Of a stretch of DNA of 64,000 bases, positions 12,262-37,865 are shown piece after piece. Numbering within the stretch: position 1 is the first letter of the stretch; every line of letters begins with the position of its first letter. The notes beneath the pieces are model-generated. The model ran no database searches, was not told where the DNA came from, and saw only the letters and a program-made list of their open reading frames with translations. The position numbers and the translations under genes are program-made. The stretch comes from Phoronis australis (Eukaryota; Animalia; Phoronida), in NCBI GenBank assembly GCA_002633005.1, contig NMRA01000394.1:124001-188000 (forward strand). The letters run 5' to 3'.

Positions 12262-13269
12262 NATCGTCAACATTGCAGTAAATTACAACCCTTGAATCGT
12301 TTTCTGTAAATTATATTCCATAGGCAATCTGGCCGGGAGCTAGTCGATCCGGTAGCGGTCCCTGATTTTGAGAACCAGTCTTTTCCACTCAATATTCAAT
12401 AACGGGCCGTTATTCACTGATTACCTGTTAGGGCAACTAGCAGTCTGTATTGACTCGAGTATTGTGTACACGTACAGGGCCCTCATTCATGGAATGGGAA
12501 AGGTGCCTGTGCCGGTAATATTTCAGGGTTAGGAAAATTCCACCTCCCAATCACAGGCGTCCTCAACTTCTGATCGTTCCCAATTACACTACTACAAGGT
12601 ATGACACTCCAGACTAGAAATTCCGCAGATGCTTCACTTCAGCCGTCCATAGCAAACACGAAACTAAATAATTTTCAAGAAATAGAAGTTCAGCAAACCA
12701 ATTCTATTTACAGTGTCCAGCTCATAAAACTGCTGAGTGTGCTAACCATTGAGCTATATGGGCAATTGCCCGGTAACGAGTAGCTAACAGAGGTTTATAT
12801 GATTCACCGGAAGCACATCTACAACATCTTTAATTCTTTCCATCTAGAACATATACTCCCATTATCAAATTTTTGTTGAGCAGTCCTTCGTTCAGTTTTC
12901 AAAACCGGAAACTGGTCATTTTTACGCAGCGCACGCCAGGCGATATTTTGTCACACCACCTGCCGTGCTCAGGTGTGGCTGTCTAAGAAACATACAAATT
13001 ACTCTGCTGGATAACACACATTCTTGGAGCTAACATGGCCAGATGCTACAGTATATCTCGTGGTCTACTATGCATCGTGTCACGTTCCTTAACCAACAAT
13101 TTGTCTCTTGTGCTTGAGTCACAAATGTGTCTTGTCACTTCTATGCTAGTTTGTGTCTCAGTCTTCATCACGTGTTGTGATGCTTTTTAGATATGTCATA
13201 TTGTCTTCCATTAAGTTACATTATTTTACTACTCTCTTGTCAATATTTATGAGTTGGAATATTTTGCAG

Positions 13270-16200
13270 CAATTCTTCACTCAAAGTGAAAGGGATCTTC
13301 TCATAGAGTCGTGGGAGGCAGGAATGAGGCGGGAGAATTCCCCTATGGTCGTTGATATGGCAGAACGTTTAGGTTGTGGTGCGAAGCGAATAAAGGTGAG
13401 ATTTAGTAAAACTACACCAGAGTTCAGATTATGTAGGCAAATGTGCTTGTGGTCCTTTCAGTATTAGAAAAATTGAAATGAAATGTTTGAGACATCACCA
13501 GATGAGGGTTGGAAGGTGTAGAGCGGGAAGAACTTCAGGAATTTGAGAGCCAATTAAGTAATTCACGTTACTGCTGTCACTTTGTTTAGTCAAATGGTAA
13601 TAGACCGTTTGCAAAACTGATTCACTGCTCCAATGCATACCTGCTACGATTTTTATGGTTTTTACGAGTTGCGTGTAACACAGTGTTACACTTTTGTCTC
13701 TGTTGTGTACATAATTTTGTCCACTTACCTCCAATTCTGATTGTTAATTACTTAATGTTTTGTTTTGCTAGAACTGGATCAGTAACTATCGGAAGCAGGT
13801 TGAGGGGAGGACATATAACAGAAAAAAGTCCCTATATGTTAAGGGCAAGAGCTCTTTTAATCAGTTTTGTGAAGAAAAAAGTGAGTATCCTCAGGTGGCA
13901 TTAGGTAACTACTTAGCTTTTTTCTGTATGCACATTTTCTTGCCTTGCTACAAAATGTCGATTTACTTAGAGTTTTGTCTGAATTCAATGAAAACTTCCT
14001 TTCTTGTGACTGAATTCACAGGCTTTGATGCTTACTCTTTTCAGAATGAGTTTCATAAATTTATTGTACAGTGTAGGTGCATTTCAATGTATTTGATTTG
14101 TAGGGTTGATAATGAGATTTTTTACACTTGGCTACCTTAATATAGATATGTGTGTAACTATGTATATGTATATGTATATATTGAATGTCATGTCTGTTAC
14201 CTTTTAAGTAACAAAATTTTTATTTTAACGAGGGTAGTATTGCGAAAAATCTGAAAATTCATTTTTTCTTCAAGCATGCTTTCTATGCATTAGGAACCTC
14301 TGTAGTAAATTACCTATGCGGTATATGTAATTGGTTCTGACCCAAAAGACTGCTGTGTAAACAAAAAATGACAGACATACAGAGAAGTTTGGCCAATAGT
14401 AAACCATGGCTATGCTGCCAATCTCACATTTTGTTAGAGATAGATATAGATCTCATGCTTATGAAAAGTTTTAAATACTATGTTCTAATAGCTTTCACAC
14501 AGTTTTATGAAGCTTGAAATACTCTAAGATTGCTCACTCCAATGTGGCTTTGTTCCTAGAGTCATCAACTGGAGTCGCAGATTTCAAAGCATGGGCCACT
14601 GAATGGAATGGGTTGAGTGCTTTTACCAAAAACCAATATAAGGAGAAGGCTCAGTCCAGTCAGCAGCTTCAGAACTCACCGAAAACCACAACGAAGCTGC
14701 TGACTATGCTGAAATCTGTGGTGAGTTTTATATCTGGACACTAAGGGTACAGTCAGTAGAGTAGGGACCTGTTGGCAAGATAGCTATTGTACATTTTTGC
14801 TTCTAAAATCACTACATAATGATTCCCTGTGTTCGTTCCATTTCGTATAGTCACTTCCTTAGTTTCATTTGTTCGTTCTCCAAATTCTTCTAATTTGAGC
14901 TGTTATACTGGAGCAGACATTTGCCATCAAGCCAGGTCCCGCAAATGAATATTGGGCACTTAAGAGCACAAAGTTAATCCATTCTCTGAGCAGATTGATT
15001 GTTAGAATTTTTGTGTGTTCTGGCACTTAGACCAGTTAAAAACCTCACGGCCGACTTACCATTGTTAAAAACATGGTCATTACTTCACCTTAGGGCGAAC
15101 AACATTTAGACGTAGGTTGCGCAACATAACAGGTAAGATGTACACTTAAGATAATGCAACTGTAGCTTCTGGCACATTTTGAGTAATTTCAGTACTACCC
15201 ATTGTTTAGCTCATGTTATTATGTTTAGGTGGAATCTCTCAAAACGGTTGGTGTGGTTTGTGGTGGCATTGTCTATGAAGTAGACAAGGAATTGCCAACA
15301 GTGTTTGGTGTTGAACCTGCGCTCTCCTTCTTCAATGAGCATCACATTTTAACAGGATTCTGTCGTCTGTTTGACCAAGGTAATGTGTTTGTTGTGTTTC
15401 TATGCCCTCTTATTTAACCATGTCATTTATTTCATGTACTTGTCAGTGCTTTGATTTTTGTTGTCTGTAGTTGATTTTTCTTTTCTCGAAATGCAACTGT
15501 TGAATGCTTCAGACATCCAGAAATCTGCAACCTTAATTATGCTATAGATAAACTAAGTTTGAAGTACTTTTCCTAGCAAATGCACCCCAGAAGTACTAAA
15601 ATTGTGTTGTAGTGTAATGCATCAACTGAAGAAAATGTTGAAAGTTGGTTTACTTAACTGCTTGCTTGAACTTGTTACATCAATATTTTTATTTCGCTGA
15701 CAGATAAGCCACGGATTGTTGAAGACAGGAGGGCTCAAGTTCAAAAAATCTTCAACGATGAGTTCTGTAGGTAGCTTAATATTTCTATTTTGCTTTGTTA
15801 TCTTAAGTGGTCTTATTTGTACTTCTAAATTAGAGACAAAATACCTTTTGAGATGGACTATAAAACCATTTTTAGTCCATTGCAATTATTATTCTTAGAA
15901 GAAGATTTTGCTACATTACAGAGAACAAATTGTTTTCAATGAATTGTTGCTGCATGAAATTAACTTTTATTTCCTGGTACGTGTTTCAGCAAGAGCTGTC
16001 GGAAAACGACAAAAAGTGCCCTACAAGCAGCTGGGGAAAACATTGGAGGTTTCACATAATTTGGGAGAGGGGATTATCTTTAAGAGGCCAGGTGCCTATG
16101 GCATAAAAACCCTGGAAAAAATTATCAATTTCCACAGAGATAGTGGCGTGGAACTGTGTGTGAAGAGGTGAGTATCTGATACGACACACAGTATTAAACA

Positions 16201-19200
16201 ATGCTACTACCACCGTCACGTGAGGTCATATTATGATAGCTGCAAGTAATCACGCAATACTTGCTCGAGTCAGTGTTCGGCTTTCATCATGGGTGCCGCA
16301 GCCAAAATACTACCTTAACTAATGCCTAACAATGGCACACCTTGCCAGCATACAATACTTTTAGTGAATCTGTCTACTTCTAAGACTGATGTAAATAGTT
16401 ATTTACAATAACGTAGTTCTGGAGTCTAAAAGTGATTACACCTACTACTTTTATTAAATTGTTTGCAATTATTTCGTCCTTTGTTAAATTAGCTATCTTA
16501 ATTGTAATATTTGCTGCACATCAGACTTATATGGGAACGTGTTTATTTCTGTTGGCAGTTTTTTTTATCTTACCTCTGATTCATTTTACTGCATGTATTT
16601 GGAATTTTTATGGCATTTGACAAATTAAGCTATGTAGCTAACAGACATCAGTGCAGTGAGTGGGTATTCTTTCCAGTTTGATTACAAGTTGTGTTATCAT
16701 AAGTGAGAACATTTTTAGGTTGGAGAGTGAGCGGAGCAGTGAAGTAGAACCTGTACAGAACCAGGAAGTGGGTATGTTACATTAATTTGGCCTTGACTTA
16801 GATGAGTCACTTACTACCATGATGTTCCATAGATAAGCCCATGCCACGAAACCCTTGTGGGCATTTATTTGGGAAAGTATGTCGAATAAATGTCCATGGG
16901 TGTTATCCCCTTAAAAGCCCACTTAGCATCAATTGTCAGTTCTGTGGAGAATTTATCATTTCTAAAAATGAACCATGCATGTTATTAATGGAATATTTAA
17001 AAACACAGTGTGAAGTGAAAAATATTGGGAAACCTCTTCAAATAATTCTAGACATTTGTGTAGCCAAAACTCTTCTTTTCCCAATAAGCATTTAGGCGTT
17101 TATTTGATGTTACTGAAATGCAGGCTCATGGGCTTATCTACTCAAAATCCAGGTATAATGTGCCAGTGAAAGTAGTTGTTGCAGTACATGCCTGCTTATA
17201 TAATTTTGGCAGAAAGAAAATACGCATATGCACTGTCCATTATCATGTTTAATACATTCAGGGAATGATTGCTGTTGAAACACTACGTTGCTCAAAGATG
17301 TGTTATAGAAATGCCAATATGGGCATTGCCACAAAAATCATCTTAAGAATTTTGGATTAAAACACTTCAAAAATGGGGTTGGTCAGCTATTACAACATTT
17401 GAAGACTCTATAGTACACACGTCGTAGAATCTTTTGGTGCATCATGTAAAATTGGCTAAATTTAAAGGTAAAAATGTTCCCAATTTTTTTAATATTGTTG
17501 TAGATTAAACTAAAAGAACGATTTTACTACCTATACTATATGCGATGAAATCTCTTTGGCAGATTGTGATATTCGCTCTTCAACTACTTTACAGTAACTG
17601 GGTACAGCCTGCTTTATGGTTTATCTGAGTTATGTCGTATGTTACCACTTCAGCTGTACTTTGTTAAACAAATTGTTTGAGGATTAGGCACTCAAGCAGT
17701 GTTCTTGATGACCGATTCTTGCTACCTGTTTGATTTTTCCTCTGATTTATTTAAATAGTACATGACACAATTGATATTTTTATTTTGAACAAAGAAATAT
17801 GTGTGTTTGCCATGATATGCACAGATTGTGAATAGTTAATTTGATAGACTGTATTATGATAATCACTATTAATTACGCCAATGTATTTGTTACTTTTATA
17901 TTTGTATATGGGCTGGAATAAATTGAGTAAATTATTTTTCTGAAAAAGTATGTGGAGCCTTTAGGTCAAATTTTGGAGTTAGCCTCAAGTCACTTTCATG
18001 AAATATGTGCTTGAACACATCCCTCACTACACAAGTTTACTGGCATCATGAGCTAATGTTAAGCACACTGAGATTATCTGGGGAAATTGATTACAAAGAT
18101 GACAATAGAACCCCATTCTATTCTATTTGTAGCTTTTTCTAACTACCAGCAGCCAATGTGTATGAGAAAATTTTCATTTTTCACAGTTCATTTCAGCATC
18201 TGCTAATACTAAATTGACTTGAACATTTACAGCAGAATTACTTCAAGGAGTGCAGAGAGGCGAAGCTCACTTGGAGGCCGTAAGCGAAGGTATTAAGCTG
18301 TAAACTTGTGTGTCTTGTAATTTGCCTTTTTAGATATTTCCGAAGTGCTTTTCAGTTTCATTTGGTTCAAAAAGTCAATTGTCATAACTCGAAAATTTCT
18401 GGGTATTGGTGAAATTCAAACGTAAGCAATCTCTTTTTGTTGCTGTGTGTATGCACAGCATCAGGTGTTGCAGTGGTTGTACTTATAGTTGTGGTTCTAT
18501 GTTAACACAGCAAATACAAGCACAAAAGACAGACTTGTATGCAATCTCATATGTGATGAGCATTACCATGATTAGTCTATTTTCTTATTTCATGTGGTGT
18601 AAATCAATAAAGTGCTCCTTTAAAGTTGTAACCATTTGTTCCTTGCTTTAAGACAGACATTGCATTTATCTTACAGGAAATGGTGCTACTAGTGATGTCA
18701 CATCTGCAGGTTTGCAGGAACTGCCAATGATCACTTCATCAAATTCTCTGAGTAGGTGCTATTCCTCAAATGAATAACTTCCTTAAGTTACATGAAATCA
18801 TGGTATTATAGTTAAAGTGGCTGTACGTCGTTAGTCGACGAATGTGTTAATGAAGCATGTTATCCCTGTTAAACTTTTCAAAATTACTGCCCGTCTAGGG
18901 ATAAGCACAAAAAAGTGAATTGGTTTGCTCAGTGATGATGTTCTATTGATATAATCATTAAACAATCTTTATACGTCACTATCAGATCAAGGTATACTGG
19001 GGCTTGGGGGAAGTCTGAATGGTTATTACTAAATCATTTGAAAATTTGCTGATCATTTTTACTTCAAAACTTTTTTGATTTTAACGGAAAGAAATATCTT
19101 CACCTTTTTTGAAAATTACTTGGTGTAATTTTTATTATGAATGGAAAGTATAATATCAGACTTAACTAAGACTTTGCACATCACATAAAATACTTTAGAA

Positions 19201-22200
19201 GAAAAATATAAAAAAGATTGGTTGTGTTTTTGATTTGCAAAAAATACCATGTCCTTTGTTCAGAGTTATTTGGGTATCAGGGCAGTTGTTTACGTGTGAG
19301 TGTTGCTGTTATAATGTGCCTTTGACTATATTTGTAGCAGAAGATGTTTTGGCGGAAGACGTTTTGGCGGAAGACGTTTTGGCGAAAGATGTTTTGGCAG
19401 AAGACACGGAGACAGTACGTGTAAAGACATCAGGTATATGATAAAGTTATTATGTAATCCCATATAGATGACATGACTCCCATTTGACTCTACCTTTGAC
19501 CTGGCGCAAGATGATTGCTGTCAGCGGTCAAAGTAGACAAAGAGGTGGAGTTGGCAAGTTGCTAATGACTTGAATTACCATTAGTACTTATATTTTCGAT
19601 GTTGCGATGATTGTAATTTCCCGAATGTCTATTGTGGAATCAACAAATTTTGTTCATGACTACCGTAGAAGTGGTAAACTGAGGAGCTGCACAGGACTTA
19701 GAATTCTCCTCTTTTTGGTTTCGATTTCCAGTTTACTCTTGTTTTGACTATTTTTATCAATCATTGTTTTTACTTTATTCATACTAAAACATTTGAGTCA
19801 AACTTTACAACTCAAAAAAAATTATTTCTGTCTCACAAGCCTTCTTTATTTGTGGAACAATACATCACCTGGAAAATTTGCCTCTTTTTGTCACTGGGCA
19901 TTCTAAGCCCTGGTCATAGCACTTTTTGAACTAAGCTAGACAGTCAAAATTCTAAAGTTAATTCACACTTGTTTCATGGGACCACATTTCATAGCTTTCC
20001 ATGGTTTTGGTCTCGAGGAATTACCATTCAGCAATTCAAGTAATGACACCATGGAGTCAATTTTCTTCTTCTGGACACATGCACCTGGTCATTTTTAGTG
20101 TAAACGTGACTACAGTCTGTCAAATATTTACTCATAAAGTATGTAACCAACATAATTAGCTACGTAACTGATATGTATGTCTAATGCCCTTTGCTGATTT
20201 ACTGCTTTGCAGCTCTGTAAAATTTGCTCATTTCCTTGATGGATAATTGGTTTACATAGAAGCATATGTTCACATTCATTTTAAACCGCTCAAATTAAAC
20301 GATTTCCTTGGACATAGAAAGTTTGTTAATGTTGAAATCCATGCTCAACAAGTTGGCTTGTCACAGCGAGTATGTTGTTACGCCTTCTGTTGTTTTGAGC
20401 AATATTTGTTGGTCCAGAAATTTCATTATTCAGTATTCAGTATTCAGGATTTTAGCAGCTTTAATAATGTTAGCCTTTTATTGTTGTTAGCACATTTTGT
20501 ATTGGATTCCTGTTTGTCGCAGATGAAATCTTCAAAATGATGGAAGCAGGTGATGTCCGCATGGTGGAAATGATTGATAATTCGGAGACCGTCAGTAAGT
20601 TGTGTGTTGTGTGCTCACCTTACCTTATAATCAACATTTTTCATTTTTACTTTATGGTCTGCAACAACGTTCCTTAGACCTGAACATTTTTCTAATACCT
20701 AAAGTATCCGTTTTCATATAGCAAACTTAAATTTCAATAACTTAACAACCTCATTGCAATCACCGTTTGTGTTGATGTATTGGTAACAAGATCGCTTATT
20801 ATTTCTTGTACTTTGTTACACCATAGATATTGTAATTCTGTTGGTTATCATTCCTTTTAAAATTTATTGTTATTACAATTGTTAATCTGCCTGCATATAA
20901 TGCTTTCTTTTTGCACACAGTAAATGTATAACTGGTGTAATTATTAAGGTGGAATGAACAGTAATAATCTCTCTTGGTCTACTATGTCATGAAGTTAAGT
21001 CTACAAGGTAGATGGACATAAATTAAAATGTACCTTCTTAGCAGAGGTGTTTTTTGTCATTTACAAGTGACTGGTATCTCATTGTATCATTCTATTTTGT
21101 GTCTGTGGTTTCATACTCCTTGGATGACCCTGACCTATTGAATAAACTTTCATACTCCTGCTCATTGCTCTCTAAATCCTGACTAAGACATTTGAAAAAC
21201 CAAACAGTGGTTGATGTGGTTTATTCTTTTACAGAAAACGTTCAAACAAGTCCTGAGTGTAATGCTTCTGGGGAACCTTCTGATAGTAAGTTTCAAATGG
21301 TTTGTTGTCATGATACTATGAAGAGCAGAGTTACCAATCAAACCTGAATACCTGGTAGTCTACCTATTTTCTTGGATTTGAGCTAAAAATTTTGGCTTCA
21401 AACTTTGAGAATGACTCAATGATTGGTACAAAAAGGTTTTTGCTCTAGACATTAAGCCAATAATGTAAACCACTCCACAATGAAGTAGCGGTTTTGACAG
21501 CAAAACTTGTGGATTGTGATAGGGTAATTACTGTTTTATTTAACATTGTGTTGGCAGACATGAGAGAGATACTGAATTCTTCAAAGTCAAAAATCCATCC
21601 ACTATGCTATCTCATTACATATGAACTGAATGTAATGAACGTAAGCCTATTTTAAGGGCACATAAGTAGTCTTAGAAAGTATAGTTTTTTGGTGTATTTT
21701 CATATCCTTTCAAACTTCAATGCATGTTTTGCACAATCCCTGTAGATTTAAGGTGCATGACTCAAGAAAACATTTCACCTATAATGCACTTCTTTATATT
21801 CTTAATGAAATTGTTTTAGTTGACCAACCATCTCAGGTCTCAGAATGGCTTGGCTTTTTGTCTGCTACATGAAAACTATCATTGAAACCAAATATCCTTG
21901 TTTTCTTATAGTGGAAGTCGTTGAGTCTGAGAGAGAGGTAATACCTGAAGGTAAGACACTGGTACTAAGTAAAATTACGGAAATTTATCTTTAATTGTTT
22001 TCCAGGTTATACGTTGAGGTCTGTAATTGAGAAAAGCCTTTAATGCACCCTTTATTTACAACATTCTCAAGTTGCAATGCGAAATAGTGAATCTAGGGTT
22101 AATTTGTGTTGGAGTTGCATAAGGTGATAGTTTACCAACCAACATGGCCACTAAGGACAGTGAAACTTTTGGAAATTGTGAATGTTTCGTAAATAATTGC

Positions 22201-23221
22201 AGGTGGTCTGATACACGTTGTACCAGACGTGTGCAGGCCTCGCATGTAGGCCCATTGCACTGATCACCTGGAAATATTTTTAAGCTTTATTAATGTATGG
22301 TTAAAACCGAGCTGAGGAGCTAAAAACCTGGCTCAAGGGTTTAGCAGTCTGACCTGGTGGGACTTGAACTCACTACCTCGAGTAAAGAAAGCGGGCACTT
22401 ATCAACCAGGCCACACTGTCTCCTCCGTAAGGCATTTGGTGAACTAAAGGCTTTAGGCAAAATTGTGATCTTGGTCATTTTATTGAACTGTTTGCCCTAC
22501 TGAATAAAACAGTTAAAACTTTGTAAAATTTGATAATTTGTAAGCCAAATATTTCTGAATCATGTCCTCGTATGCTTTTAAAACATCAGTGTAGCATGAA
22601 ACATTCTACAACTCTTTGGAAATCTTGAAATCAAGAAATATTTAAATCTCTTTATAGGAATTGCAAGATTTTTTAAAGAGGTTGGAAGAATTCCATGCAG
22701 CACTCTTAATCGAAAAATAATGTAAACTGGTATTGGAACATGTGAGAACAGAAATTTTATCCTTTTCATTCATATGAAACTGACCCCAAAAGTTCGCAAA
22801 TCAATATTTCCCTGTCAGTCTTTTGTTATTCGTAATCTAATTGTGAAATGTTTTATATCATCTAAAAATTCATTTATCCCTCTCTTGTATTTTTTCTGAT
22901 TTTGATTAACTGCAAATGTTTTTTATAAGACTCCGTTTGCCGTTGAATCTGAATACTGCTTTGGTCTGATAGTGTCAGTCATGTTGGCCACTTTTAGTGC
23001 ACATATTAACACTCTGGGTTGCTCTTGTTACGTAGTTGTGTAACTGAAATAGTCTTAATTTTACAGGCATGTATGTTGTAAAGGAAGTTGTCGATGTTGT
23101 AAAGGGAAAAGGAAGACGGAGGCAGTTTCGAGTTCTTTGGGAGGGTGGAGAGACATCTGTGGTGCCATACAGAAATATCGAGCATATTTTGAAGGACTAC
23201 TACCCGCATTGGTTAGCATAA
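13270..23221 (+). CDS. Multidomain chromatin protein: divergent homeodomain + HMG box + unknown domain + acidic linker + C-terminal chromodomain, 14 exons, ~460 aa; start codon uncertain (in-frame ATG at 13249)
   Basis: Exons 13270-13395, 13772-13880, 14560-14720, 15229-15379, 15704-15766, 15990-16167, 16719-16771, 18233-18289, 18677-18751, 19338-19433, 20523-20594, 21235-21285, 21912-21950, 23067-23221. All are GT-AG and in frame (1386 nt). FTQSERDLL..MAERLG..RIK|NWISNYRK is homeodomain-like; SSFNQFC..AWATEWNGLS..KNQYKEKA is HMG-like; YVVKEVVDVVKGKGRRRQFRVLWEGGETSVVPYRNI is chromo-like. The small linker exons are the least certain. Confidence 0.82.
22200..22418 (-). mobile_element. tRNA-derived SINE in an intron of the plus-strand gene
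   Basis: The minus strand reads gtgtggcctggttgataagtg...gagttcaagtccc (Pol III A and B boxes). No complete cloverleaf; 3' boundary approximate. Confidence 0.55.
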
Positions 23222-24863
23222 TGGCTATAAATGATGGACTTCCTTAACTGCTGAAGACTTCTTAGTTGATCCTGTTCTGAACCTTTTGTAGTTCGCGTTT
23301 TTGAAAGAACATTGTTCTCTTTCATGTCATTCAAAGAGAAAGTTATATCATACTTTGGCCGAAGTCGTACTTTTACTAATCACAAACTCATTTCTCCGAT
23401 TGCATAGAAGACTGCCTTTTCGTGTTATATTGCAAATTCACAAACATCTCAATTGTGCTAGCTTTGGAATGTGAGTTAATTCATGTCTGTGATTGGTTTC
23501 CATTATTGCACTCTAAATCGACCAGTTTTGCCTGAAGCCATTTGGTTTCCTGAAACTAATTGAGAGATTACAAGACACCACTTTGTAGTGTGTAATGATT
23601 TATCATCGAATCGGGGTTCAAGGATATGTCCCGATTAATTTTTTAGAGAGAAGAGAGTTGTGGTCTCTGTATTTGACACATCATACATTTCTGCTTGTCC
23701 AGGTGTGTGGTGGACTCCTGTCTGTTTTCAAACCAACTAAGTGAAATTACAGTATTATAGTAGATCTCATTATTGTTAGAGGCTTGCTGACAGTACTACA
23801 ATTTTTCTATTGGCTTGGTTAATGTTTGTCCTAGTGTCTTGATTAAAAAACTTCAGGTTTCATATCATTAAGTTGCATTGACTGTTAAGTAGTACAGGCA
23901 TGGTTCTTGAATATTGTTCATTTTAAACTTAATGATTATCTATCCAGAATTGTTTTGTAATAAAACTTGAGTATCCTATGAATTTTATTATTGTGCTGTA
24001 TCACCACTAAGACACACCAGAAGAATCAGGAAACTGTGCCATATAATTATGTGGAAGTGTCAGAAGTATTTTCTGAACCATAATAGAATATAGTACTTAG
24101 TTTTTTCTTATAGCATAGGCTCATGAGAGAGGATATCTTTGTTGGTGTGAGACCCCAAGACCAGACAGAAAAAAACTCCTGAATTCGGAGTACAAATTGC
24201 TGGCGCAAACGAAATGTTACTCATCCTCATCAAACGATTTGGAATGAAAATTGAAAGGAAAGCCACTGGCATTAAGTCTGTGGTGCACTTGGAGAAATTA
24301 TATGGGCGTTTTAGCCTAGTAACCCTCACTTTGTCCAATATGGGGCGTCAGTGATTAGCGCAAGACAGGAGATTGTAGGACTACGTTTTCCTACTGTGAC
24401 TGTTACAGGATCAGCTCTGGTCCCTGCACAAGGTTTTGTTTAATTTGTGACCTTACCCACGTAATAAAGCTGTCTCGAGGGATAATTGTCACCGACTCCG
24501 TTCAATGAAATCGGTCTTTGTGCCTCGGTCAATATCCTTTCATCAGTGCTCTCACCAAACTTGTGGGCAAGTGCTGGAATGCTAGTTGCTGTGCGTCAAG
24601 AAATTCTTGTCATGTCATGTGGTACAGAATTTAGTTCATGACGTAAAATAAAAAGTTTTCTATACTATGTTGAATTAAGGAAGGACGCTGTGAAGGACCT
24701 CGGGTCTGGCATCCCATAAATTATGGTACAAATTTAGTTCTAAACACAAGTAAGGATACACACTATGTATGGTGAACAAATACGTGAACGTATTGTTCTA
24801 GAAAAAGAACATTACTACTTTGACTACTTTTGATATGCATCGGAACGACTAGTGGGTCGTTAT

Positions 24864-24924: not shown

Positions 24925-27505
24925 GTTATTATTACTCCGAGGAAAACCGCCGCGCAATCCCGGGTGGTGGAAGGTATAATCCGTGTACGCTTTTTAAAAG
25001 CTTTGAAGAAAGCGCCCTGGAGAGTCTAAAGACAGCGAAAACCTATTACAAGTGGAAATGAAAAAAAAATGAAGTTACCTCACTGGATTTAAAGTTTCGG
25101 ACCTCGTGGCGGAGTATTTGTAACTGAGTAACGGACGACAAGAACAATTTAACGATGGGGTTTATTTGCTCAGTTTTAGGTATGCTGGAGTGAAATGGCG
25201 GAATCTGTCACTCATTGACATTTTTAACTTTTTAAATGCCTTTAAAAAGCCATATACAATTGAAATGCTCCTCGGAAATCATACCCAATGGGGAGGTTGA
25301 ACTCCTTATTGTCGAAATATACCCGAAGAGCGTTACGGCGAATAAGGTACCTTTCACAATTTTTTAACGTGGTATCGAAGTTTTTTCACGTGCTCCCCAG
25401 GTGTATAAGATATATGTTCAGTGAGCATTTTGCAGCCCCCAATGGCCTATCACCGATTGGACAGCATGTTCGTCTTCATTAATCAATACTAAAATTCCCA
25501 GTAAAACTGCGGCTGAGGGCTATCAAAAATAGTAAACCGCACCATTCCAAAGATAACGTGGGTTTCACAGGACCGAAATCAGTGACGCTTGGTTATTTGT
25601 AAACATGGGGCAGGGGTTCAAGATTGACGATGACTTTAGGATCGTACCCTTTATTTTTGAGAATCATTCTACCCGACTTGTTGGAGAGTGCGACGTTCAG
25701 TATTTATGCTTTACCGGCGGCACCGATAACATTTAACCGAGAATATCCTACGTTAAGAATGTACGCATAGTCAGCGGCTACATGTTGGGTTTACAGGTAA
25801 ATTCACACTGGCAAGGTGATCAATTGGGAAATTTTTACGTTTACAACGGAGTTGGATACAGAGTTTCCAGGATATTTAATCCCCTGCCATAGACGCACTG
25901 ATATCCAGTACGTCGGCTAATCACCACTGAACCACCCGTGACTGAACTCAATGTTTTAGGTACCGGGTACAGAGACACCGCCGAACTCCCGACCTCAGTG
26001 CACCCCAGTATACAGTGCTGCAGTGGGGCTAAGGCGCACGTCGGAGCAGCCGACAACGTTTTGGCATTTGAACGAAGCGCCTACGCACCAGTAATTACGT
26101 TCAGTGCTCAAGGTGATATGGTGGGCTTTGGGCACGTACCTCGAATTTTACCACTACAACACTGCCAGTATAAAATATTTATTACCCTCTCTTGCCCTAT
26201 AAAAAAGTTTCAAAGGATGTATAAATCCGCATGTTCACCTATCAGATAATAGGTTTCATTCCATTGTGTAGGGGGTATGTCCGTTATGAGTGGCAATATG
26301 CGGACTGCAAGTAAGCACCCGCATTCCTGAATCTTCACCTGACGTTTAGAATGTAGGCACCATAATTTCTAAGGCAATTCATCCGTTTTCATACATTTTC
26401 GGTGTTCCAAGAACTGTGGTCAGTTTTACGAAAACTGATTTAGAAAAGAAAAGTAAAATTTCAGTCAATTTTAGATACAAAGTAAATTTGGCTCAATAGA
26501 TATCTTAAGTTTGTCTTAAATGTCTTAATTCTGAAAGACTTCAGCATTTCGAACTTTCCAAGGTTTGGAAGTCGAAGCAAATCTTAAGACGTAGGGCAAA
26601 AATGAACTTGAGTGAGTTCTTTGCAATGGGCCCCAGGCTTGCGCTTATCTTGCCAAAACAGTTGGTGTATCATCGTCTTTTGTCACAGGTATTCAACAAT
26701 TATCAAGGCTGGGTGCTTAGGTATTGTATTAGTATTAGATTTCCGTAATCTACAACATGGATGAGTCAGCGCAGTTTGTCACTGGCCGGTACTGGAAGCT
26801 TTCCGTGCACTATTAAACTGAGAACTGGTTGCAGTTAACCACTTTATTACTCTTAATGGTGCATCCACAAGTCTACTAAAAAACCTTCAATGTAATATCT
26901 CTTCAATGCCCCAGTCAGTGCTGTGAAACCATAGGATGTGTTGAACTCGTGAGACACTTCCAGCAACTGTTAAATGTGCACGGTGTGTCTATATATCCAA
27001 CTTTCTATTGACTATACAGTGTACCTGCAACTGCTTAGTCAGTAAGTGCAATTCAACCATTCTGCAAACATTTTCTGGACTATAATTCTATATTAACAAC
27101 TAATATACCAGAAGGGTTCTCCAATATTCTATTGTAAATTAATTACATCATCTCTGGCCGGTCCTCCTTGGTCATGTAAATCAAGCATAATGTACTACAT
27201 AATCAACAAATAGAATTATTACTTTCACCATGACTACAGTTCACAGTTGATGCCAGACCTCCTGTAGGTAAAATGCCACTTCTCTTTACTGATGTGGGCA
27301 CAGGTAGCCTGCTGACCAGACTAAGAAATGTTTACAGATAAAAATACAGAAATAACACAAACATTGAAAGTGATTAGTATAAAACAAAACATCTTTGCTA
27401 TAAATAATTTGACATAAAAATACACATACTGCTCACTAACAGAATCTACAAGTATATGCACAAAATGCATAACAGAAAACCTTCATAACAGGTATTTTTG
27501 CTTAA

Positions 27506-27571
27506 AGGCGAATGCAACCTTTTTCATGTCATTTTATCTAAAAATGATATGAAAAAAGGTTGACTTTGCCT
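27506..27571. mobile_element. 66-bp fold-back mini element flanked by TTAA (Kolobok-like)
   Basis: TTAA|aggcgaatgcaacctttttcatgtcatttt..aaaatgatatgaaaaaaggttgactttgcct|TTAA forms a near-complete hairpin. Confidence 0.7.
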
Positions 27572-28279
27572 TTAAACTAAATGAGAATGCTATGTGAACA
27601 CCATCTATGCTACACAAAGTCCAGTTGAATCGATTGACAACTTTTACATGTGAAAAACAAAAATTCAGCAAATAGGTGACCTTTGCACTAATGAGGATTG
27701 TTGAGGAAAGTGGTTGGGCTTAGGTACTGGTGGATAAAGGTAGTGATGCTTCATAAACTTGTATGGTAGGGGGGTGGCTTGAGAAGTGAGTGAGGACAGA
27801 GCTGGCTAAAGGATTGTTAAGGGTTGGAACATGGATTATGTGAGAAAGGGGCGTCTCTTGAGAAATAGCTGAAATACCAAAGCCTGTGTCAACGAAAGTG
27901 AAAGTTGTAACATGCTGGTCCCCAGAGTTGGTTGACATTTTTTCATTGTTTTTTCATCTCATTACCACCACTGCAAAACACTTACTGGACACAGTTGAGT
28001 GATTTATGGCAGACCATACTTGACACAAAAATCGTTCTTAAAACACTTGGCAATTTTCAACATATTCAGTATTAACATTGTTGTGTTCCTAACTACTGAC
28101 CAAGCAAACAGAGATAAGGAATTAGTGTGCAAGTTCCGGTTTAAAACACATCCCACTTTCCTTGGGATCTCAACCACCAGATAACTTTGCATGGTGTACT
28201 TGATGGCACATCCGACCACTCCAAACTATACAGAATCAAATATTACACCCAGTCCTCTAATGCTAATGATGACTGATCA

Positions 28280-31200
28280 TTACTGTTCATCTTCACTTTC
28301 AATTTCACTGTCTGAGCTTGATGTTACGTCTTCATCACTGCCTTCTGTTAGTGATTGAATTGCATTGCGTTGCTCTCCATATACAAGTTGACATATTTGA
28401 GTTGGCATTTCACCGAGGTCCAGAACATACTGGTGGAACACAGACATCCTATCTAGGATTAATTCAATTTTCAAAGCAAAGTTTTGCCACAAGGCACAAC
28501 CAGTGGTGTCACCTTTGAACAAACAATCCACCCTATTAACAATAGCTTTGGTGTGTTCACCAATGTAGTGTTGCACAGTTGACCTCATCTCTTCCTTAAC
28601 GAGACTCATTTCCTCACGTGCTCTGCACATCATGTGAAATGCATCGAGTGCCTTCAGTTTCAACTCACGCGGAGCAATCTCAAAGTGTTGTTCATCATTT
28701 CCTTGACTTTCCCCAAGACATGACTTAATGTCAAGTGCATCTTGTAGAGTGATCTTGTGTTCACTTTCTACGTTGTTGTAGCGCCTAACCAGTCTGGAGA
28801 CATGGTTAGTGCATTTAGTAATTTGCTTGGCCAATCTGTTAGCAATTGCCTGGCCATCTGTAAATAACAAAATAAAATTGTAATTATTATAACAAGAACT
28901 CCTCCTGACGCACTGACATGCCCCAGAATATCACAAAATCAGGTGAAAACTACTAAATAACTTTTATGACAGACACATAACAATTGCAAATGCTGAAAAG
29001 TCACAATTCTGCAAACGAGAAAATCGGTATTTTCAACAAGTCAACACCAACAGTTCTTAAGGGCTGTAGACATCTTGGTTTTACCATGCAGACGTATTTG
29101 ATGCAATCAATGATATTTTACCATTGGCAAACTTTTGCTGAAAATAACTTCCTGACTGTAACATAAGAATGAATCATGAATTGCATTACCCACAACCACA
29201 TTCTAAAGTCGCATATTTTTATCTGTCCCGTAGGACTAATGATAGAAAAATGCGTCATTGACATTTTCCCAGAAAAAAATGGAATTCAGACTTGGCATTA
29301 CTGCATCTCCCAACTATTAATTTACAACTCACTCGAATAATTTCTTTTCAAATTGATGAGGTAGAGACGTTCACTGGACACTTTTCTGATCTCGTCAAGC
29401 ACCTGTTCCTTCGATCCATATTTCACTGAAAGATAATATGTATTGAAAATGATCAGCACAAACCAATGAGAGAAACACTGATGCAATCACTGTCTCGTTT
29501 TTGAAGTGATGATGAATGTAAGCACAGCAAATTCTCCAGACTATTAGTTTAGATAAGCAGTCAACCATGCCTGTTTCTTGACTGAAGCAATCACATGTAA
29601 TTCAAGAATGGAGAGTACATTCACACCAAAACAACAGGATCAAAAACACAACATGATGTTACCTTTTACCCAAATTATCAATCAATTTGCTTTCTGTAAC
29701 TTTTAATGATGCTTTTTCATGATTTGGTACATGTCCTCAAATAGGCACGTTCTTTATTTTGAGGCTTTACGATACTCAGATTTCACACTCCTGAGTTTGC
29801 CATGTTCTCATTTGAAAAACTTTACTATTGGCAGTTGTGGAAATCACCTGCCAATTACCACTAATTCCGTGAAACTACGGAGCAAACATTTAACATATCA
29901 AAGCCAATTATCTACTAACTGAATTCATCTGCTAACAGGAAATTTGTGCTACCTTGGGAACTTTGCTTCCGTGAGTATTCATCTCTCAAGTTTTCACTCC
30001 AAACTGTCAATACCTCTTCAGAAATTTGTCCTGGAATGAAGAAACAACATAACGTCATCTAGGGTCTGTTTGTTTGAAAATCCAAAGGAAGCAAGAGGTT
30101 GGAAAATATAATTCCAGAGTGTGCCACTCAACTTGCTGTCAAAGACATGCATCCTTGCCAATTTGAAAAGCTTTACAAGTCTGCATAAGCTTATACAAAA
30201 CCAGCTGTTCATAGCTGTATAATATATAACAACATTTAGTCACTTACCAGGTAGCATTTCACAAACGCTGCCCAATTCATTCTGGTAGTGATTAAAAGTT
30301 GCTTCAGCCTTCTCCATTTTGGTGGTCAGAGTTTTGGCTGAAATGAGAACAAAGAAATTTATGAACCATTCAGAAACAGTTTACACTGGTGTGTAAAGAT
30401 GCTGAATCAATTATTTTGCACACATCCAAACTTAAAAGCTTTAGTATACAGTAGTTCATTATCTGCTACATTAGCAAAAATTATCTATCCTGGCATGGAA
30501 GTCAAAGCCCCGATACCCCAATAACTGAGATCACTAAGAATGAGCATGCAAAATGCAGTGGCAGAGACATGTTTTTAGCTAAATACAAACTAATATGACT
30601 GCTTTCATACTTGTCATGAGTGTGAATGTATTTGTGTATGTATGTATGTATCTATCAATAATGCATCCCCACATTGCTTCAATAAGATCTTACCAAATCT
30701 AGACTTTAAGCGTTCTCCATAATGCAGAAGGGCATCTACAAGCAGATCTTGTCGGTGGCTTGCTGTCATTTCTTTCGTTATTCTAGAAAACCTCCGCAGG
30801 AAAGACCACAAGCGTTCTATAGCTTCACCATCTGTCAAGCCAAATGATTGTAGTTTCCTTGGATTATACAGGACCTATAGCATAAATGTTAAAAGTATGA
30901 TTTATCAAAATTGACAATGTTAGCATTTTGTTGATGCACATTTGAACCGGACAAAGCATGACCTTTAGGCTGGCAAGTCTCCCAGTCATAGCATAAATTA
31001 AGGCTACAATAACAGACTGAAGATGATCCGTTTTTGTTTTCAGTGAACTGACCATGTACAAAACACACTTCATACTTGACACGCTGCTTTGTGGCCATAT
31101 GCATGAAACACGGGAATTCCCAGGTCTATCTTTTCCAACAGTGAGCTGTTATTCTTCTTCTGCAAAGAAAAGAAAGGAATATTTACTTATCAAACCACTA

Positions 31201-34200
31201 ATTTGTTGAACAATCATGTTGATAAAAGTATTCCAATCACAACTTTTATTTTTAACTTTCCACTTGATATGTGTACCTCTGTCTCACATCAAAATGTCCA
31301 TTTGAAAATGTTGCAGGAGTGCGTAAGAAAATATTTGAGGTTATATCTTCACTTAATTGCAAACAAAAAACTGTTGTTGCCAACAGGTACACTTTGTTTA
31401 TGGCCAATCAGTCAATGAAATGAAATACAGTACTTAAGTTTTTCCGCACTTCGAAGTCCTATTGTTTGCCAATGCACAAATACTACAGAGCAAATACAAG
31501 CGCCAATAGTATCATTTTAAAGTTATGCACATTTAATTCATTGTTATGTCACAAAAATGTGAGTTCAAACATCTCAGAAAGCAAAATGAGATTCACGTAC
31601 AGGATACGAGACAAAATTCTCTCCTCTAGTCAACATTCAACTAAGTTCGGACGCAACCAAATATCATTTGCATGATAAAGCTACACAGAGCTGTGATAGA
31701 ATGTTACAACACTTTCACTTAAAAACAAACACAGCAAGTTTTCAAATGACGCCAGTGGAACATTTTGAGAAAGGGTTATAAAGAATAGTAATTTTAAAAC
31801 TGCTAACCAATGAAGGCTTCGAGAAATAAACATATCAAAATTTGTAACCATTGCCCAAAACATTTATTAGATAAAATACAAACCATTTAGAACATGCATG
31901 CTGCTCTCAAGCCACCATTTGAAAATTATTGTATTCGATCAATTTCATCACGTCTGCTTCATAAGAAAATACTATCCAGAAATTACAATTCCGCATTTGA
32001 CAGTAGGAGTTACAACACTTTTCTCAAATATAATTTGTTTTGTGTTGAACAAAATTTTGAGGGCTACACGCATTTTCAGCCAAAAATCCATAATTGCTAT
32101 ACCTTCAAATGTTTCTCCAACATGCATGCAATGTCATACAGAATATTGCACTTGGACTTGCGATCAGTAGTAATCTCTTCCAGTAGTTTAACAGCATATG
32201 CCAACCTAAAAACATTCGATAACATTGGAAGCTGGTCATTAACAAGATTGGACTTAGCCAAAAAGCATAGCCCAAAATCTTCCTTCAGCACACTAAATCA
32301 TACTTTGACAATCCTATAGGCGAACATTGAAAAATCTTGCAGGAATTAGAGTGAAATCTCTTGAGACTTTCCTAACCACCAAACAAGTGCCAAGGAGGAT
32401 GAAGGTGGTTCTGCACTGCTTGTTATAAACCATACTTTGAATTAGGAATTTCCTGGGAATTAAGATGGTGTATTTTGCCTGACACATGGGGAAAAAGTGT
32501 AAAAACAACCACCATGAAGACGCTTCTCATATACTGTTTATTTGAATTTTAGCTGTCTCATTCATAAACTCAGGTGTAGCACCACTAAGCATGATTACCT
32601 TTCACCATGCATCAGGCTTAGAAACTTCTGAGGAAATTCATGTCTGCAAACAGATCCAAAAATACCCTTTTCCGACAACTTTGCAGTTCTTCCCTTTGAC
32701 CTCAGCATATTTCCAGCTTTGAAGTCACTACAGTCCTGAAATTATTAAGTAGATATCAAACTGATCCATGATAGAACTCTCATAAAGCATTTGATCTTTG
32801 ACTACCTAATGAAAGTGAACTGTTTTCCTGATGTATGCATGGTGAACATGGGGCCAACTGAAGCATGAAGTGGTACAAAATATTGCAAAAAATGTTCCCC
32901 GCCCCAACCTTTAAAGTTACTGGTCCCTAAGTCAGGATAAATGATAGCTGGGTAATTTCCTGGTTACAATAATCGTCTCGTGTCTATTAAATCTTTATAG
33001 TGGGTATCCCTACCACTAAATACTTGTTGGGAAGCATTAGGTCCTTTGCTTTGTAAGTGCAGAATGTCAGCTTTGCCTCATTTTGTGATGTTTGAATACT
33101 ATTCAGAATTCAGTGGAAAACAAAGAAAATCTCTGCACATTATGAGTATTATTAGTTAAAAGTTAACTTGATAAGAAAGTAATGCCAATCTAAGAATTTT
33201 TCACCTGCTCAGCAAGAACATTGTCGCCACTGTACTGGTCCACATACTCATTCACCTCGCCTTGATTGATGAAGAATCTAGATCCGTGTTTTGGTGATAA
33301 ATTGCTGACACCAGCGGAGACTTTACGCACAAGTCCAAAATTTGCATCAATTGAAAACATTGCTTTAAACTCTTCATTCTGAAACATGGAAATTATAATA
33401 TGGACAGAAGTTGTGTGTTGAGAATTCATCCAACATGTGTGGAACCATGTGAACACAGCCATGTACTGCAAATTTTGGCGTGAAATATGTTCTCCCATGC
33501 TTTATTTTGAATATATTCACATCTTTTCAGTTTAATGAGACTGTTACTCAGATGGGGACTCAATAAGCCACAGCCTCAGCTGTCACAAATCTTACCTTTG
33601 GGCAAACAGGACAAACTGTACCATCATCGAGATGAACGCCATCATTTTGAGGGTATCTCAAATTGTACGAGAAAAAGCGGTACTCCTCAAAGGTTTCTCT
33701 AGAGAGAGACTTGCCTATATCATTAACCTGGAACAATATGCAAAACAAAGTTGATGCAAAAGCTAAAATCCACATCTCAAGTTCCAAAACTGGAAAATAT
33801 TGTTTTTATAACAAACAGAACAATCAGTGACAGAAAAATGATATGGTAATGTACTCAATACTTTATAAAAATGGCTAACTTTGAAACACAGTATCTCAAA
33901 AATGACAGATGAAATTCACTGTATGCTTTCCAAAACACTATTTGGAATAATCAAAATGTTTCACTTTTATGAGAAGCAATAAAAAATTAGGACTTTTAAC
34001 ACACGGTCATTTGACCCACCTATCGACCGATTGGTATCAAGTCTAAACTTGTGGGGCGAAAGGGGTTTACAAGGGAAAACCTTGTCACTGGAATCTGAGA
34101 AGTCATTTAGTTTGTTCATTTCATCCATGGCTGCTTTAAAATGAAGACAATCTTGACCCTTTTAATATTTAAACTATTTCCAAAGTAATAAATAACATGT

Positions 34201-36534
34201 ATTCTTAATTTGTATGAAGCTCAACTAATAATACACACTTTATTACCTAGTTTAATGCTTATAGTTATTTATCAACCAGCTTGATATATCATTCTTCACT
34301 AAGAAAATGGGAAAAAAATCTGACTTTTAGACTGCCTACCAATTTCAATGGCAGATCAGACTGTGCTCCTAAGATATTCAACACGGCTGCAAATCCAGAC
34401 ACAGAGATCTGACATTCCATCATAAGCACCCGCAGCATCTCCATACACTGAAGCGTGAATGCAACCTGAGGAGATTTTGGAGACGCTGGCCACAAACCAT
34501 ATCGTACAAAAGTAGCCACGGCTTCTTCACAGTCACAAAGAGGGATTTGCCTGGAGTGGTGTCGACCTAAAACATTATCAAAGCAGCAATGATCACTTCA
34601 GCAATAGGTGAACACGATATGGTAATAGTCTGATACAGGGATCAGCATAACTGGCATCAAACAGGTTCTCATGATACACGAAAGAAGAAATCATGTTACC
34701 AAGCTTTTGTATGTATCAGTCCTTCACTAGCAAAGGCCTTAGTTCTGAATTGATTAAGGGCTGCCATTGTGTACAGAACCGAGGTGGATATATTAAGCCG
34801 GACACCTTCCAAAAGATATTTAAAAGGCTGTACATGGAAAACTTTGGGGTAGACATTAGGTCATTACCAGGTGGATTTATTAACACCATACAATTCAATG
34901 TACCAAGAATTGTTAAAATGTAATACTTGTCTTTTAAAAACTACTCTTACCACTAATGTCTATGATGGTGACATAAGTGAATCTGATAGTCGTACACTGA
35001 TGACTTTCAGGAAACTTGTCCAAGGTGCCACCACCCAACTCAGCATAAGAAGAATGCTGAAACAAGAATTATTATACAAAAGTCCACTTGAGTTAAACAG
35101 TTCTTCATTTGGTGAGAAGTAATTCGGCTATGTTAACAGTCGTAGCAGGTTTTCAAGGTGGACATCAGAAAATTCAGGCTTTTTTAATTGCAATCTGTAA
35201 ATCATCAGTTCTTGTACAAGGCTGCCAACCCATTAAGCACACTAAAACTGTAACATATAGTATGTTAAAAATCCATAATTTGCAAGTGAAAATCGGTGAG
35301 TAGTGATTTCTAGGAAATAAATATGTGGATTACGGAAAACTATGCAACATTTGGCAGCTCTAATTTTAACAAAATGCACAGTGACAGAGATGACTTCACT
35401 GAATGGTTTCCTATGACGTGTGTAATTGTTCAAATTAGGTTACTGATAATTTAACAAATTTGTTCAACAAACACTAACTTACTACTTAAGGTCACGGATC
35501 ACAAATATAATAAAACTCACAAGCCTGCCACAGATTTCGCCCCCCATATAAAAAACACTATCAATTAACTGTTGAACATCACTAGAAACCCCACAATGGA
35601 GATATATTTTGTTATTCGCGGGACTATGATACTCAAAACTAGAAATTTTATTGTGTTTAAAGCAGTTTCTACTTTTCACTGATTGAAATTTTTATACATG
35701 TGTACATACACACTTGGGCACACATATGTATACGTTACCTGCGACACCCAGCGTAAAGGTGCATGGAGGACCTGATATTCATGAACTTCGTCGCTACATT
35801 TCAAACAAAAGTAAGATGTGTAGGAGCAATCTTTACACCATATGATATCAGTAACCTCCTTCTTGCACTTTATGCAGGTAGATGACAACGGTACATTTGT
35901 AACCTTTGTGTACATATTGCACATTATGTTTCTGACATCTGACCATGCTTGCTGTAGCCTAGTACATGATTGTTGGTATGATGTTGTCATCAAGTTTTCT
36001 GTAAGAAGGATGATTGTAAATTTCATAGAGCAGCACATGCCCTGTAAGAACAAAAGAAAAGTAAAATAAAATCAAAGTTTGTTTGACAACAGTTTTTCTA
36101 TCAATATGAAACATAGTTGCCATCATCTGATGACCTCAAAGCAGGACAGTGTGCTGAGAATTTTTTATTTTTCAACAAACCTCTCACAATCGTAAATTAT
36201 AACACAGGACACAGCTCAAACTAAATAAAGATAGACCCTGTAACAGTGAAACTGCCCAGCTCAAACTAAGTCGCTTGGCAAGCATGAAAAAATATATTGG
36301 TATCATTTTCCAAGTGCATTGTGGCACTCATGATGTTTCCTGCTTACCATTGGTAAGTAATGTGGTGGATGAGACTGTCTCTACACCAACCATTGGGGGA
36401 TGTGATTCCTCCACGGGACCTCGACTTCTGGTTTTGGCAGGAGTAGGAGAAATTCTCAGGGTGACTTTTCGCATCTTTCCATTACTCTGAGGTCTGCGCA
36501 CTTTAAAACAAGGTTTTTTCCTTTTTCTTAACAT
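28280..36534 (-). CDS. KDZ (Kyakuja-Dileera-Zisupton) superfamily transposase with N-terminal Cys/His cluster and CxC1-like domain, 14 exons, ~809 aa
   Basis: Exons 36348-36534, 35739-35998, 34951-35056, 34340-34566, 33596-33727, 33205-33378, 32599-32735, 32103-32205, 31076-31159, 30694-30874, 30248-30337, 29953-30030, 29333-29425, 28280-28857. All are GT-AG and phase-compatible, totalling 2430 nt. Motifs: CIKC..CKDC..CLKC..H..LH; CDC..GLWPASPKSPQVAF; CPVCPK; SIDANF (D1); GSVCRH..HGER; YDIAC (D2); PVFHAYGH..CQ; GLTDGEAIERLWS (E). Confidence 0.93.
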
Positions 36535-37865
36535 CTTACATAGATTCTGAAAAATAATTCCACAGAGTAAGCACACACCAGGCCATAAAGATTAATTTAA
36601 ACATCTCTCAAACATAATTCATTGTTTCAATGATCGAGACTACACCATTCTTTAGACACTTTTGTTCTTTCCAAAATATACACCATTGTCCTCAGCATGA
36701 AAGGGACACAACCATGCCTTAATTGTCCAGGAGCCGCATAGGGGTGACTTAATTGGTACTTCAAAGGATCTTTAGTCTGAAACAACAAAAGGGAATTCTT
36801 TTTTCTGATGTACTCTAAAAGCGCCTGCAACTCATAGCAGTGGGCATTCTCTTAAATTGCTAGCATCAGTCGAGTAGACTGAAAAACACCCACTATTCAG
36901 TGAAAAAATGGTCCTGCAATAAAAATCACAAACAAGAGAATTCAATGTTTATTGAAATTTTCAAGCCAAGTATTTGTTAAAGACATGGACGAACCTCTCA
37001 AGGTGTCCCTCTACGAAAGAAAGATATCGAATGCAATGTCTATTTGCTGAAATGCTTCCATGAATGCGGCATATGTCAGAATGTGATGTGCAGTACCATT
37101 TGGCAAAAAGAGAAAGGTGCTTCATGGTACCCTTATTAGTTTTTCTCATTTTCTAACAGTCAGAGTTAAAGAGAGCAAGAGAAATAATGTATAAGGTGGA
37201 TACAAAAAGTAGACAGTTACCACCTTCTGAACTCAGGGCCAGCACAATAAGCTCTAGTACAGCTTTGCGCAGAAGCGGGTAAAAAAACTGACCAGAAAAA
37301 ATATGACACCAAATTAGCGTCATCAAATAATTTTTCACTTATTTGAGTAAATAAAATTATTTCCTGGTTTTGGAAAAATTGGTGTTCTACCATTATTCTG
37401 CTGTTAAAGTTGTGGAGGGATTTTCTGTGTCGGCTTTTGGCGCCATGAAATATTGTGTTACCTATTGGCCAGTTTCTTTTGCGGCGATTCTTCAATCAAC
37501 TGTTTTTCTTTCATGAGGTTATGTACACGTCACCACAAACTGGTTTCACACCATTTTAAGTTTTTAGAATTTTGATACCAGCAAACCCAATTCCAGAAGA
37601 AATTTAGCTGCTGCCAAGCTATCATTATCTCCCAAGAGATGTTGCAAATAATTAGGAAATGGCACGTGTGCATGTCACGAGGGTATTGCTTTCAAAATGA
37701 GGACATAACTTTTNAGTCACGACTGTCGAACGTCGGTCACCGTTTGGCTATAAGGCTCTAACGGTTAAGCACATGCTACAAATTTATAAAATTCGCAGGC
37801 TGAAAGCCGTAACGGCAACCTTTTCCGTTACGGCTTAGACCTTGTTACGGAGTATGGATCGGGTG

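Follow-up and report, generated by a model that had tools for sequence, protein, structure and literature searches.

The window analysed here is a 64,000-nt stretch of DNA from Phoronis australis (contig NMRA01000394.1 of assembly GCA_002633005.1), and all positions given are coordinates of this window. It carries two convergent genes, A and B, that probably form together one two-gene cut-and-paste KDZ transposon, in which gene B encodes the transposase and gene A is likely the element's own DNA-binding helper (Table 1). Both genes, assembled by hand from splice-site candidates and then checked by translation, lie inside one gap-free contig (12263-37713). Gene A spans 13240/13249 to 23221 in 14 coding exons, with 471 codons without a stop, gene B is open over its 809 codons, and all 13 introns of each gene are of the GT-AG type.

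Splicing is documented in both genes. An indexed search had listed no RNA for this DNA, and raw RNA reads then showed both genes to be expressed. Runs X5, X6 and X7 are raw RNA reads. Run X1, labelled 'DNA?', was treated as RNA because it includes spliced gene A contigs and has zero depth on the host flank at 38886-39200, and run X2 was treated as DNA since no spliced joints were seen in it. For gene A, at least 8 of the 13 introns are supported among the 15 joints listed of 78, seven of these eight by sense reads of X5 and one in X1 contigs only; two of these joints fixed the acceptor at 18233 and the donor at 18751. For gene B, two of the 13 introns stand above threshold (6 and 3 reads, sense), and nine reads splice an upstream exon, whose sequence lies outside the window, onto position 36546. 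The pair of convergent, in-frame 14-exon genes described by the original prediction, an earlier reading of this DNA from its letters, is thus borne out. Besides, X1 includes unspliced contigs covering 23065-37587, from the last exon of gene A through the spacer and the whole transposase gene, at depth 23-50. No spliced transposase joint occurs in X1, and the transposase reads of X5 and X7 are all sense. These strandless contigs may represent transcription that, in some tissues, continues far past the end of gene A and runs antisense to the transposase.

Judged by its sequence, gene B encodes a KDZ transposase, and its reading frame is intact. The exon encoding the CxC cysteine cluster precedes those of the catalytic domain, the best of which reaches 40.2 bits against PF18758 for a cut-off of 26.6. 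Conserved motifs at residues 313-317, 431-435 and 485-494 contain acidic residues that may make up the catalytic triad. X2 also includes diverged transposase fragments, whose exon 9 shows four missense changes. Protein searches by word matching, each with one exon as query, gave 440 and 9 candidates, none of which was scored, and retrieved no full-length KDZ relative.

In gene A, the GTF2I repeat (I-repeat) is the only Pfam domain above threshold. A search with the I-repeat exon returned 14 proteins, 13 of them I-repeat proteins or listed with such proteins (ten looked up by name), including vertebrate GTF2I and GTF2IRD1, the sea-urchin protein P0010 and the crinoid protein P0013; P0014 was discarded as a chance match. 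P0010 combines two I-repeats with a canonical chromodomain, and P0013 an HDX-like homeodomain with four I-repeats and C2H2 zinc fingers. The octocoral protein P0074, added by a search with P0010, is collinear with residues 13-305 of gene A (22% identity, pairwise E 2e-12).

The other modules of gene A were recognized largely through these relatives. The homeodomain segment scores z 5.5 to P0074 and 5.3 to P0013 (0 of 300 shuffles each), P0074 itself matches PDB entry 2da4 (E 0.0046), and homeodomain folds reach Z 5.4 (about 5) on the low-confidence model of the octocoral isoform P0076, of mean predicted local distance difference test (pLDDT) 36. Pfam gave no homeodomain match on either gene A exon, and a PDB search with exon 1 gave chance matches only. 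The HMG box scores 17-18 bits in gene A and its relatives, below the cut-off. By way of the relatives, both the homeodomain and the HMG box are likely but not firm. The single-sequence models used for folding are of low confidence (mean pLDDT 38.9 and 36.1), and exon fragments aligned poorly with whole relatives, so that these alignments were left out of this step.

Between the HMG box and the I-repeat stands a middle domain resembling the N-terminus of vertebrate TFII-I proteins, with z 6.4 and 4.2 for two vertebrate N-termini and 0.7 for a third; HHalign gave 77% (E 2e-5) on hand-cut regions, and a hidden Markov model of the TFII-I N-domain built from vertebrates only did not place gene A above shuffles. 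On the model of P0076 this domain is a predicted helix-hairpin-helix, for which the best 22 Foldseek rows are all MEF2, SRF or MCM1 (E 0.04-0.36, none significant), and MADS folds align with Z 4.3-4.4 and a root-mean-square deviation of 2.4-2.8 over about 60 residues. The middle domain of gene A is thus possibly MADS-like, as far as such models tell. In the chromodomain-like tail, the first two of the residues that we take to be the three aromatic cage positions are kept relative to P0010 and the third is lost, so that this copy is probably not a methyl-lysine reader; because the cage is broken, a choice of target through histone marks is less likely. The modules, as judged from domain matches and fold models, are all of DNA-binding, bending or dimerising types and none is catalytic. 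The homeodomain-HMG-chromodomain architecture first proposed for the partner therefore needs amending: its homeodomain is likely through relatives, its HMG box stays below threshold, its chromodomain is degenerate, and it had missed the GTF2I repeat.

Partners of this family are present in several copies. A second copy of gene A (14663-16039, about 93% identical, unspliced) is found in X1 and X2, and it must lie at another locus since its reads in X5 and X6 are of the opposite strand. Of the 40 listed among its 359 differences, two are in exons (179 bases), both silent, and the other 38 in introns (538 bases); Fisher's test gives p 0.001, or 0.03 once the ends of the contigs are left out, which supports purifying selection on this copy. 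In the octocoral Dendronephthya gigantea, the cluster of P0074 comprises 16 members (15 listed) at 12 loci, 99-100% identical, with one sequence on 3 contigs; eleven of the loci have named LOC identifiers (among them LOC114523901, LOC114519868, LOC114536432 and LOC114539692) and one is annotated 'highly divergent homeobox-like', as is P0083, a 108-residue octocoral fragment of the partner family. Haplotigs could account for two of these copies, and twelve go beyond them. A partner present in single copy had been named as an outcome that would speak against a shared element, and the second gene A copy and the 12 near-identical octocoral loci are the reverse of it. Two atlas clusters scoring 0.85 and 0.78, below the chosen mark of 0.9, are leads only to a wide spread of this layout, one joining GTF2I and homeodomain (166 members, mostly Cnidaria) and the other chromo, GTF2I and homeodomain (58 members, mostly Mollusca). 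Metagenome and viral contigs are collections with little animal DNA and hence uninformative here; they yielded no KDZ exon (viral contigs), no exact match of the left-end 26-mer (metagenome contigs) and no relative of the partner alignment (both).

The limits of the element were drawn from junctions. The window contains four single Ns, three of which adjoin a near-perfect duplication. At one of them, 12262, terminates the left copy of a 231-bp sequence (12031-12261) that is 100% identical to 37866-38096. This repeat had been taken as a duplicated flank bounding the block, an argument that falls away as it rested on an assembly overlap: the repeat ends at an N, and three of the four Ns of the window show such a duplication. 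It was likewise ruled out as a target-site duplication (TSD) or a long terminal repeat. The overlap is probably a trace of the empty allele. Indeed, the left 231-bp copy directly continues the host sequence in the assembly (empty-site junction), an X2 contig of depth 49 joins the same host sequence to 12552 (filled left junction), and in the assembly the right 231-bp copy is preceded by 151 other bases, joining 37865 to the host (filled right junction). These three junctions are what an insertion carried by one allele and lacking from another should leave, and from them we infer the allele status.

Four different sequences abut 12552, one in the assembly and three in X2 contigs, and one of the four is the host flank ending at 12031; the left end is therefore more likely at 12552 than at 12263, and 12263-12551 is probably the flank of the present or another copy at a different site. 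The block of about 25.6 kb proposed at first is filled by the two genes as described, with its left end displaced to 12552 and a second N, at 37714, besides that at 12262. The ends read 5'-CAC..GTG-3' and match each other at 3 of 3, 5 of 10 and 10 of 30 bases, and no terminal inverted repeat (TIR) was found at 12552/37865. The right end includes a hairpin with 12-bp arms (37804-37836). Helitron ends are of the TC..CTRR type, and a Helitron reading of this hairpin was rejected as the present ends are not. Small high-copy repeats occur in the introns and the spacer (about 19845-19889, 22191-22425, 24890-24930, 26095-26135, 27496-27581 and 37336-37560), the one at 27496-27581 being an 86-bp hairpin.

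Table 1. Features of the putative two-gene KDZ element and its insertion site (window coordinates).
Feature	Position	Strand	Remarks
Proposed whole element	12552..37865		about 25.3 kb plus missing sequence at N 37714; junction-based, join across 37714 presumed
Left end	12552..12800	+	12552 preceded by four different flanks; several copies in DNA run X2
Right end	37737..37865	+	X2 depth of 157 vs about 50 indicates about 3 copies; 37865 is the stop of two X1 contigs
Sequence preceding left end	12263..12551		289 bp; includes part of a high-copy repeat
Host sequence right of insertion point	12031..12261	+	present twice in the assembly; here as empty allele, with N 12262 closing the contig
Identical 231 bp	37866..38096	+	right flank of filled allele
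Assembly gap N	37714		X1 and X2 contigs diverge from window after 37713 and before 37737; sequence missing
Gene A, partner	13249..23221	+	about 468 residues from Met 13249; other in-frame Met 13180
Gene A exons 1-7	13249-13395, 13772-13880, 14560-14720, 15229-15379, 15704-15766, 15990-16167, 16719-16771	+
Gene A exons 8-14	18233-18289, 18677-18751, 19338-19433, 20523-20594, 21235-21285, 21912-21950, 23067-23221	+
HDX-like homeodomain (likely)	13270..13800	+	split by intron 1 in helix 3
HMG-box-like segment, exons 2-3	13830..14660	+	HMG_box_2 17.0 bits, E 0.0096, cut-off 22.4; z 5.1 to P0074
Middle domain, TFII-I/GTF2IRD1 N-terminal-like	14680..15379	+	about 65 residues between HMG box and repeat; moderate support
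GTF2I (I-) repeat, one, exons 5-6	15730..16167	+	PF02946 33.9 bits, cut-off 27
Acidic linker	16719..21950	+	148 residues, 24% D/E, seven small exons
Degenerate chromodomain-like tail	23067..23221	+	Chromo 13.3 bits, E 0.081, cut-off 25.1; aligned to P0010 chromodomain
Gene B, CxC-KDZ transposase	28280..36534	-	809 residues, 14 coding exons
Gene B exons 1-7	36534-36348, 35998-35739, 35056-34951, 34566-34340, 33727-33596, 33378-33205, 32735-32599	-
Gene B exons 8-14	32205-32103, 31159-31076, 30874-30694, 30337-30248, 30030-29953, 29425-29333, 28857-28280	-
CxC cysteine cluster	34340..34566	-	CxC1 36.6 bits, CxC2 36.2 bits, both above cut-offs (Pfam)
KDZ catalytic domain	30694..33378	-	five exons, PF18758 profile positions 1-48, 53-97, 102-132, 144-164, 167-212, in order

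TnpA of CACTA elements has a helper role in transposition and serves as the model for gene A. In the mechanism proposed, the element would run from 12552 to 37865, filled on one allele and empty on another, and the transposase of gene B would cut at the CAC..GTG ends. By analogy, gene A would do for the element what TnpA does for CACTA: its product is predicted to bind subterminal DNA as a dimer via the middle domain, the homeodomain and the I-repeat and to bend this DNA with the HMG box, its acidic linker would keep the promoters of the element active, and it would help bring the ends to the transposase (synapsis). Such a role is favored because the ends, devoid of inverted repeats, offer the transposase three matching bases only, and because the modules of gene A are of types that bind DNA, bend it or dimerise on it and are accompanied by an acidic linker.

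Several observations weigh against a single mobile element. At most 1 bp is duplicated at the available junctions, two of which come from different data sets, and no TSD of 7-8 bp is seen. The join across 37714 is a reconstruction, X1 and X2 contigs departing from the window to either side of it, and what was placed at the site as the long contig could be a different copy. A motif shared by both ends was looked for and none was found, which leaves a gap in the helper model. Copy number is low, as X2 depth over most of the element (39-61, vs 40-46 in the flank) is about that of single-copy DNA. The copies found in the octocoral could belong to an element of some other type. Finally, the observed/expected CpG ratio is 0.42 over 13400-23300 and 0.39 over 28280-36600 vs 0.92-0.94 in the flanks, and such CpG-poor bodies, as from long-term methylation, fit long-resident host genes.

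In one rival reading, gene A and gene B are not one unit: gene A would be a host gene or belong to another element, the KDZ element would end between the genes, and the outer ends would be those of a small separate repeat that misled the scaffolder into placing the contig here. The contig is bounded by an N at both sides, the stretches 12263-12551 and 37715-37736 misfit the filled allele, a TSD is lacking, and high-copy repeats stand either side of gene B (about 27500-28100 and 37336-37560). These two repeats are however dissimilar, the first being a self-contained hairpin of 86 bp, depth is even over both genes and the spacer, second copies of both genes exist with similar divergence, and the terminus with several flanks begins the contig 700 bp before gene A even if that contig is misplaced, which makes two separate units rather improbable. 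A mobile element in which gene A travels as a passenger, i.e., as a captured host transcription-factor gene not serving transposition, is also unlikely. Giant Ectocarpus KDZ elements carry extra transcribed genes of unknown function (excerpted text of PMC12477816), the tail of the partner family varies, with a chromodomain in P0010, another domain in P0074 and zinc fingers in P0013, and the helper role of gene A is itself a prediction by analogy; on the other hand, the two gene A copies differ less in exons than in introns, a second species carries an amplified relative in dispersed and nearly identical copies, and no single-copy invertebrate orthologue appears among the 14 and 21 matches of shallow searches. 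A domesticated, immobile gene pair kept for a host function, as RAG1-RAG2 or HDP1-HDP2, would explain that both frames are intact and spliced, of low copy number and with CpG-poor bodies, and RAG-like pairs without TIRs exist in protostomes (PMC7204232, abstract); such a fixed locus is nevertheless very improbable, as the assembly includes an empty allele and the ends abut several flanks. The two-gene KDZ transposon remains the preferred reading. The claim that both genes belong to one KDZ element with a DNA-binding partner of mobile character agrees with the junctions, the copies and the octocoral loci, whereas the part of it that concerned chromatin targeting is weakened.

In fungi and algae, KDZ elements with accessory genes are already known. 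Fungal KDZ elements with extra genes, one of them without TIRs (PMC11343200), and giant KDZ elements with accessory genes (PMC12477816) have been reported in the excerpts considered. In the part of Kojima 2025 (PMC12730594) available, Kyakuja elements are given CA..TG ends without TIRs and 7-bp TSDs, and Zisupton and Dileera 8-bp TSDs. Fungal Kyakuja shares with the present element the CxC-KDZ transposase, the 5'-CA..TG-3' ends without TIRs and a second gene inside; it differs by its 7-bp TSDs, where the present element has a duplication of 1 bp at most, and by a TET/JBP gene, where the second gene here encodes a DNA-binding protein of several domains, none catalytic, in an animal host (same excerpt). 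From these sequence features, the ends would fit Kyakuja and the TSD none of Kyakuja, Dileera and Zisupton, and the element is not filed as Kyakuja. Zisupton elements of fish and nematodes are, like it, large multi-exon animal KDZ DNA transposons (excerpts of PMC9297572 and PMC12062965), but are described there with TIRs, 8-bp TSDs and one long gene, whereas here TIRs are absent, the transposase has 809 residues and a separate convergent gene is present. The combination of TIRs with an 8-bp TSD, a mark of Zisupton and Dileera, is thus not seen in the present element. RAG-like transposons also have two convergent genes, one catalytic, in a large animal DNA transposon, but belong to another transposase superfamily, with TIRs, TSDs and an unrelated partner (abstract of PMC7204232). 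TnpA, the Myb/SANT partner of Harbinger and VANC of VANDAL provide the functional model of a second, non-catalytic DNA-binding gene, but have no sequence or domain relationship to gene A. Full-text searches, which did not reach most subscription journals, brought up no paper describing a KDZ partner with a GTF2I repeat or a homeodomain, or deriving the I-repeat from a transposon.

Around the element, exons of neurotransmitter-gated channels on the minus strand flank the block on both sides. The tandem nicotinic acetylcholine receptor genes initially described at these places hold at the level of the channel family, the nicotinic subtype going beyond what Pfam gives. Further N joins with duplicated flanks occur at 4276 and 55960, the latter repeating a portion of a channel gene's last exon. 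Within the right-hand channel gene, a weak THAP-domain match (58656-59062, plus strand, 18.1 bits, below cut-off) is overlapped by an open frame on the minus strand, possibly a P- or Harbinger-type relic. Two inverted repeats of 56 bp, separated by 549 bp (40876-41536), together resemble a miniature inverted-repeat transposable element, and a dispersed repeat is present in two copies 82-94% alike (43392-43750 and 54273-54573). Rfam gave no match in 11000-39000.

The TFII-I family is central to Williams-Beuren syndrome. Gene A resembles its vertebrate members GTF2I and GTF2IRD1 (PF02946 and the excerpted text of PMC8155576) in having a putatively similar N-domain followed by an I-repeat, in the same order, but has one repeat where these have 5-6, bears additional homeodomain, HMG and chromo-like modules and adjoins a transposase. 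It is thus a relative of the family and not a member, as its repeat is single instead of five or six in tandem. Alternative models of the octocoral gene and of vertebrate GTF2IRD1 break where intron 5 of gene A interrupts the repeat, an indirect hint, from gene models, that the I-repeats of gene A and of the TFII-I family share the position of a splice site. A tree of 35 I-repeats does not resolve the direction, and vertebrate repeats as one clade are neither shown nor rejected (approximately unbiased test, p-AU 0.465). We tentatively propose, at somewhat less than even chances, that the vertebrate TFII-I family (GTF2I, GTF2IRD1, GTF2IRD2) is a tamed KDZ accessory gene, the helper, of homeodomain-HMG-MADS-like-I-repeat-(chromo) type, being still mobile in cnidarians, echinoderms and molluscs; as part of the same joint and equally tentative claim, vertebrates would have retained only the final two modules, with the repeat increased in number. 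It is plausible that TFII-I derives from a transposon; alternatively, the element may have taken up an old host gene.

If true, the 'leucine zipper' N-domain of TFII-I would be a MADS-like fold. The helper ties a transposon to the I-repeat, studied so far almost only in vertebrate TFII-I proteins, and it supplies a checkable origin for the TFII-I family, together with a hypothesis on how the N-terminal domain of that family folds. It would also imply that some invertebrate genes annotated as 'highly divergent homeobox-like' or HMG are parts of transposons.

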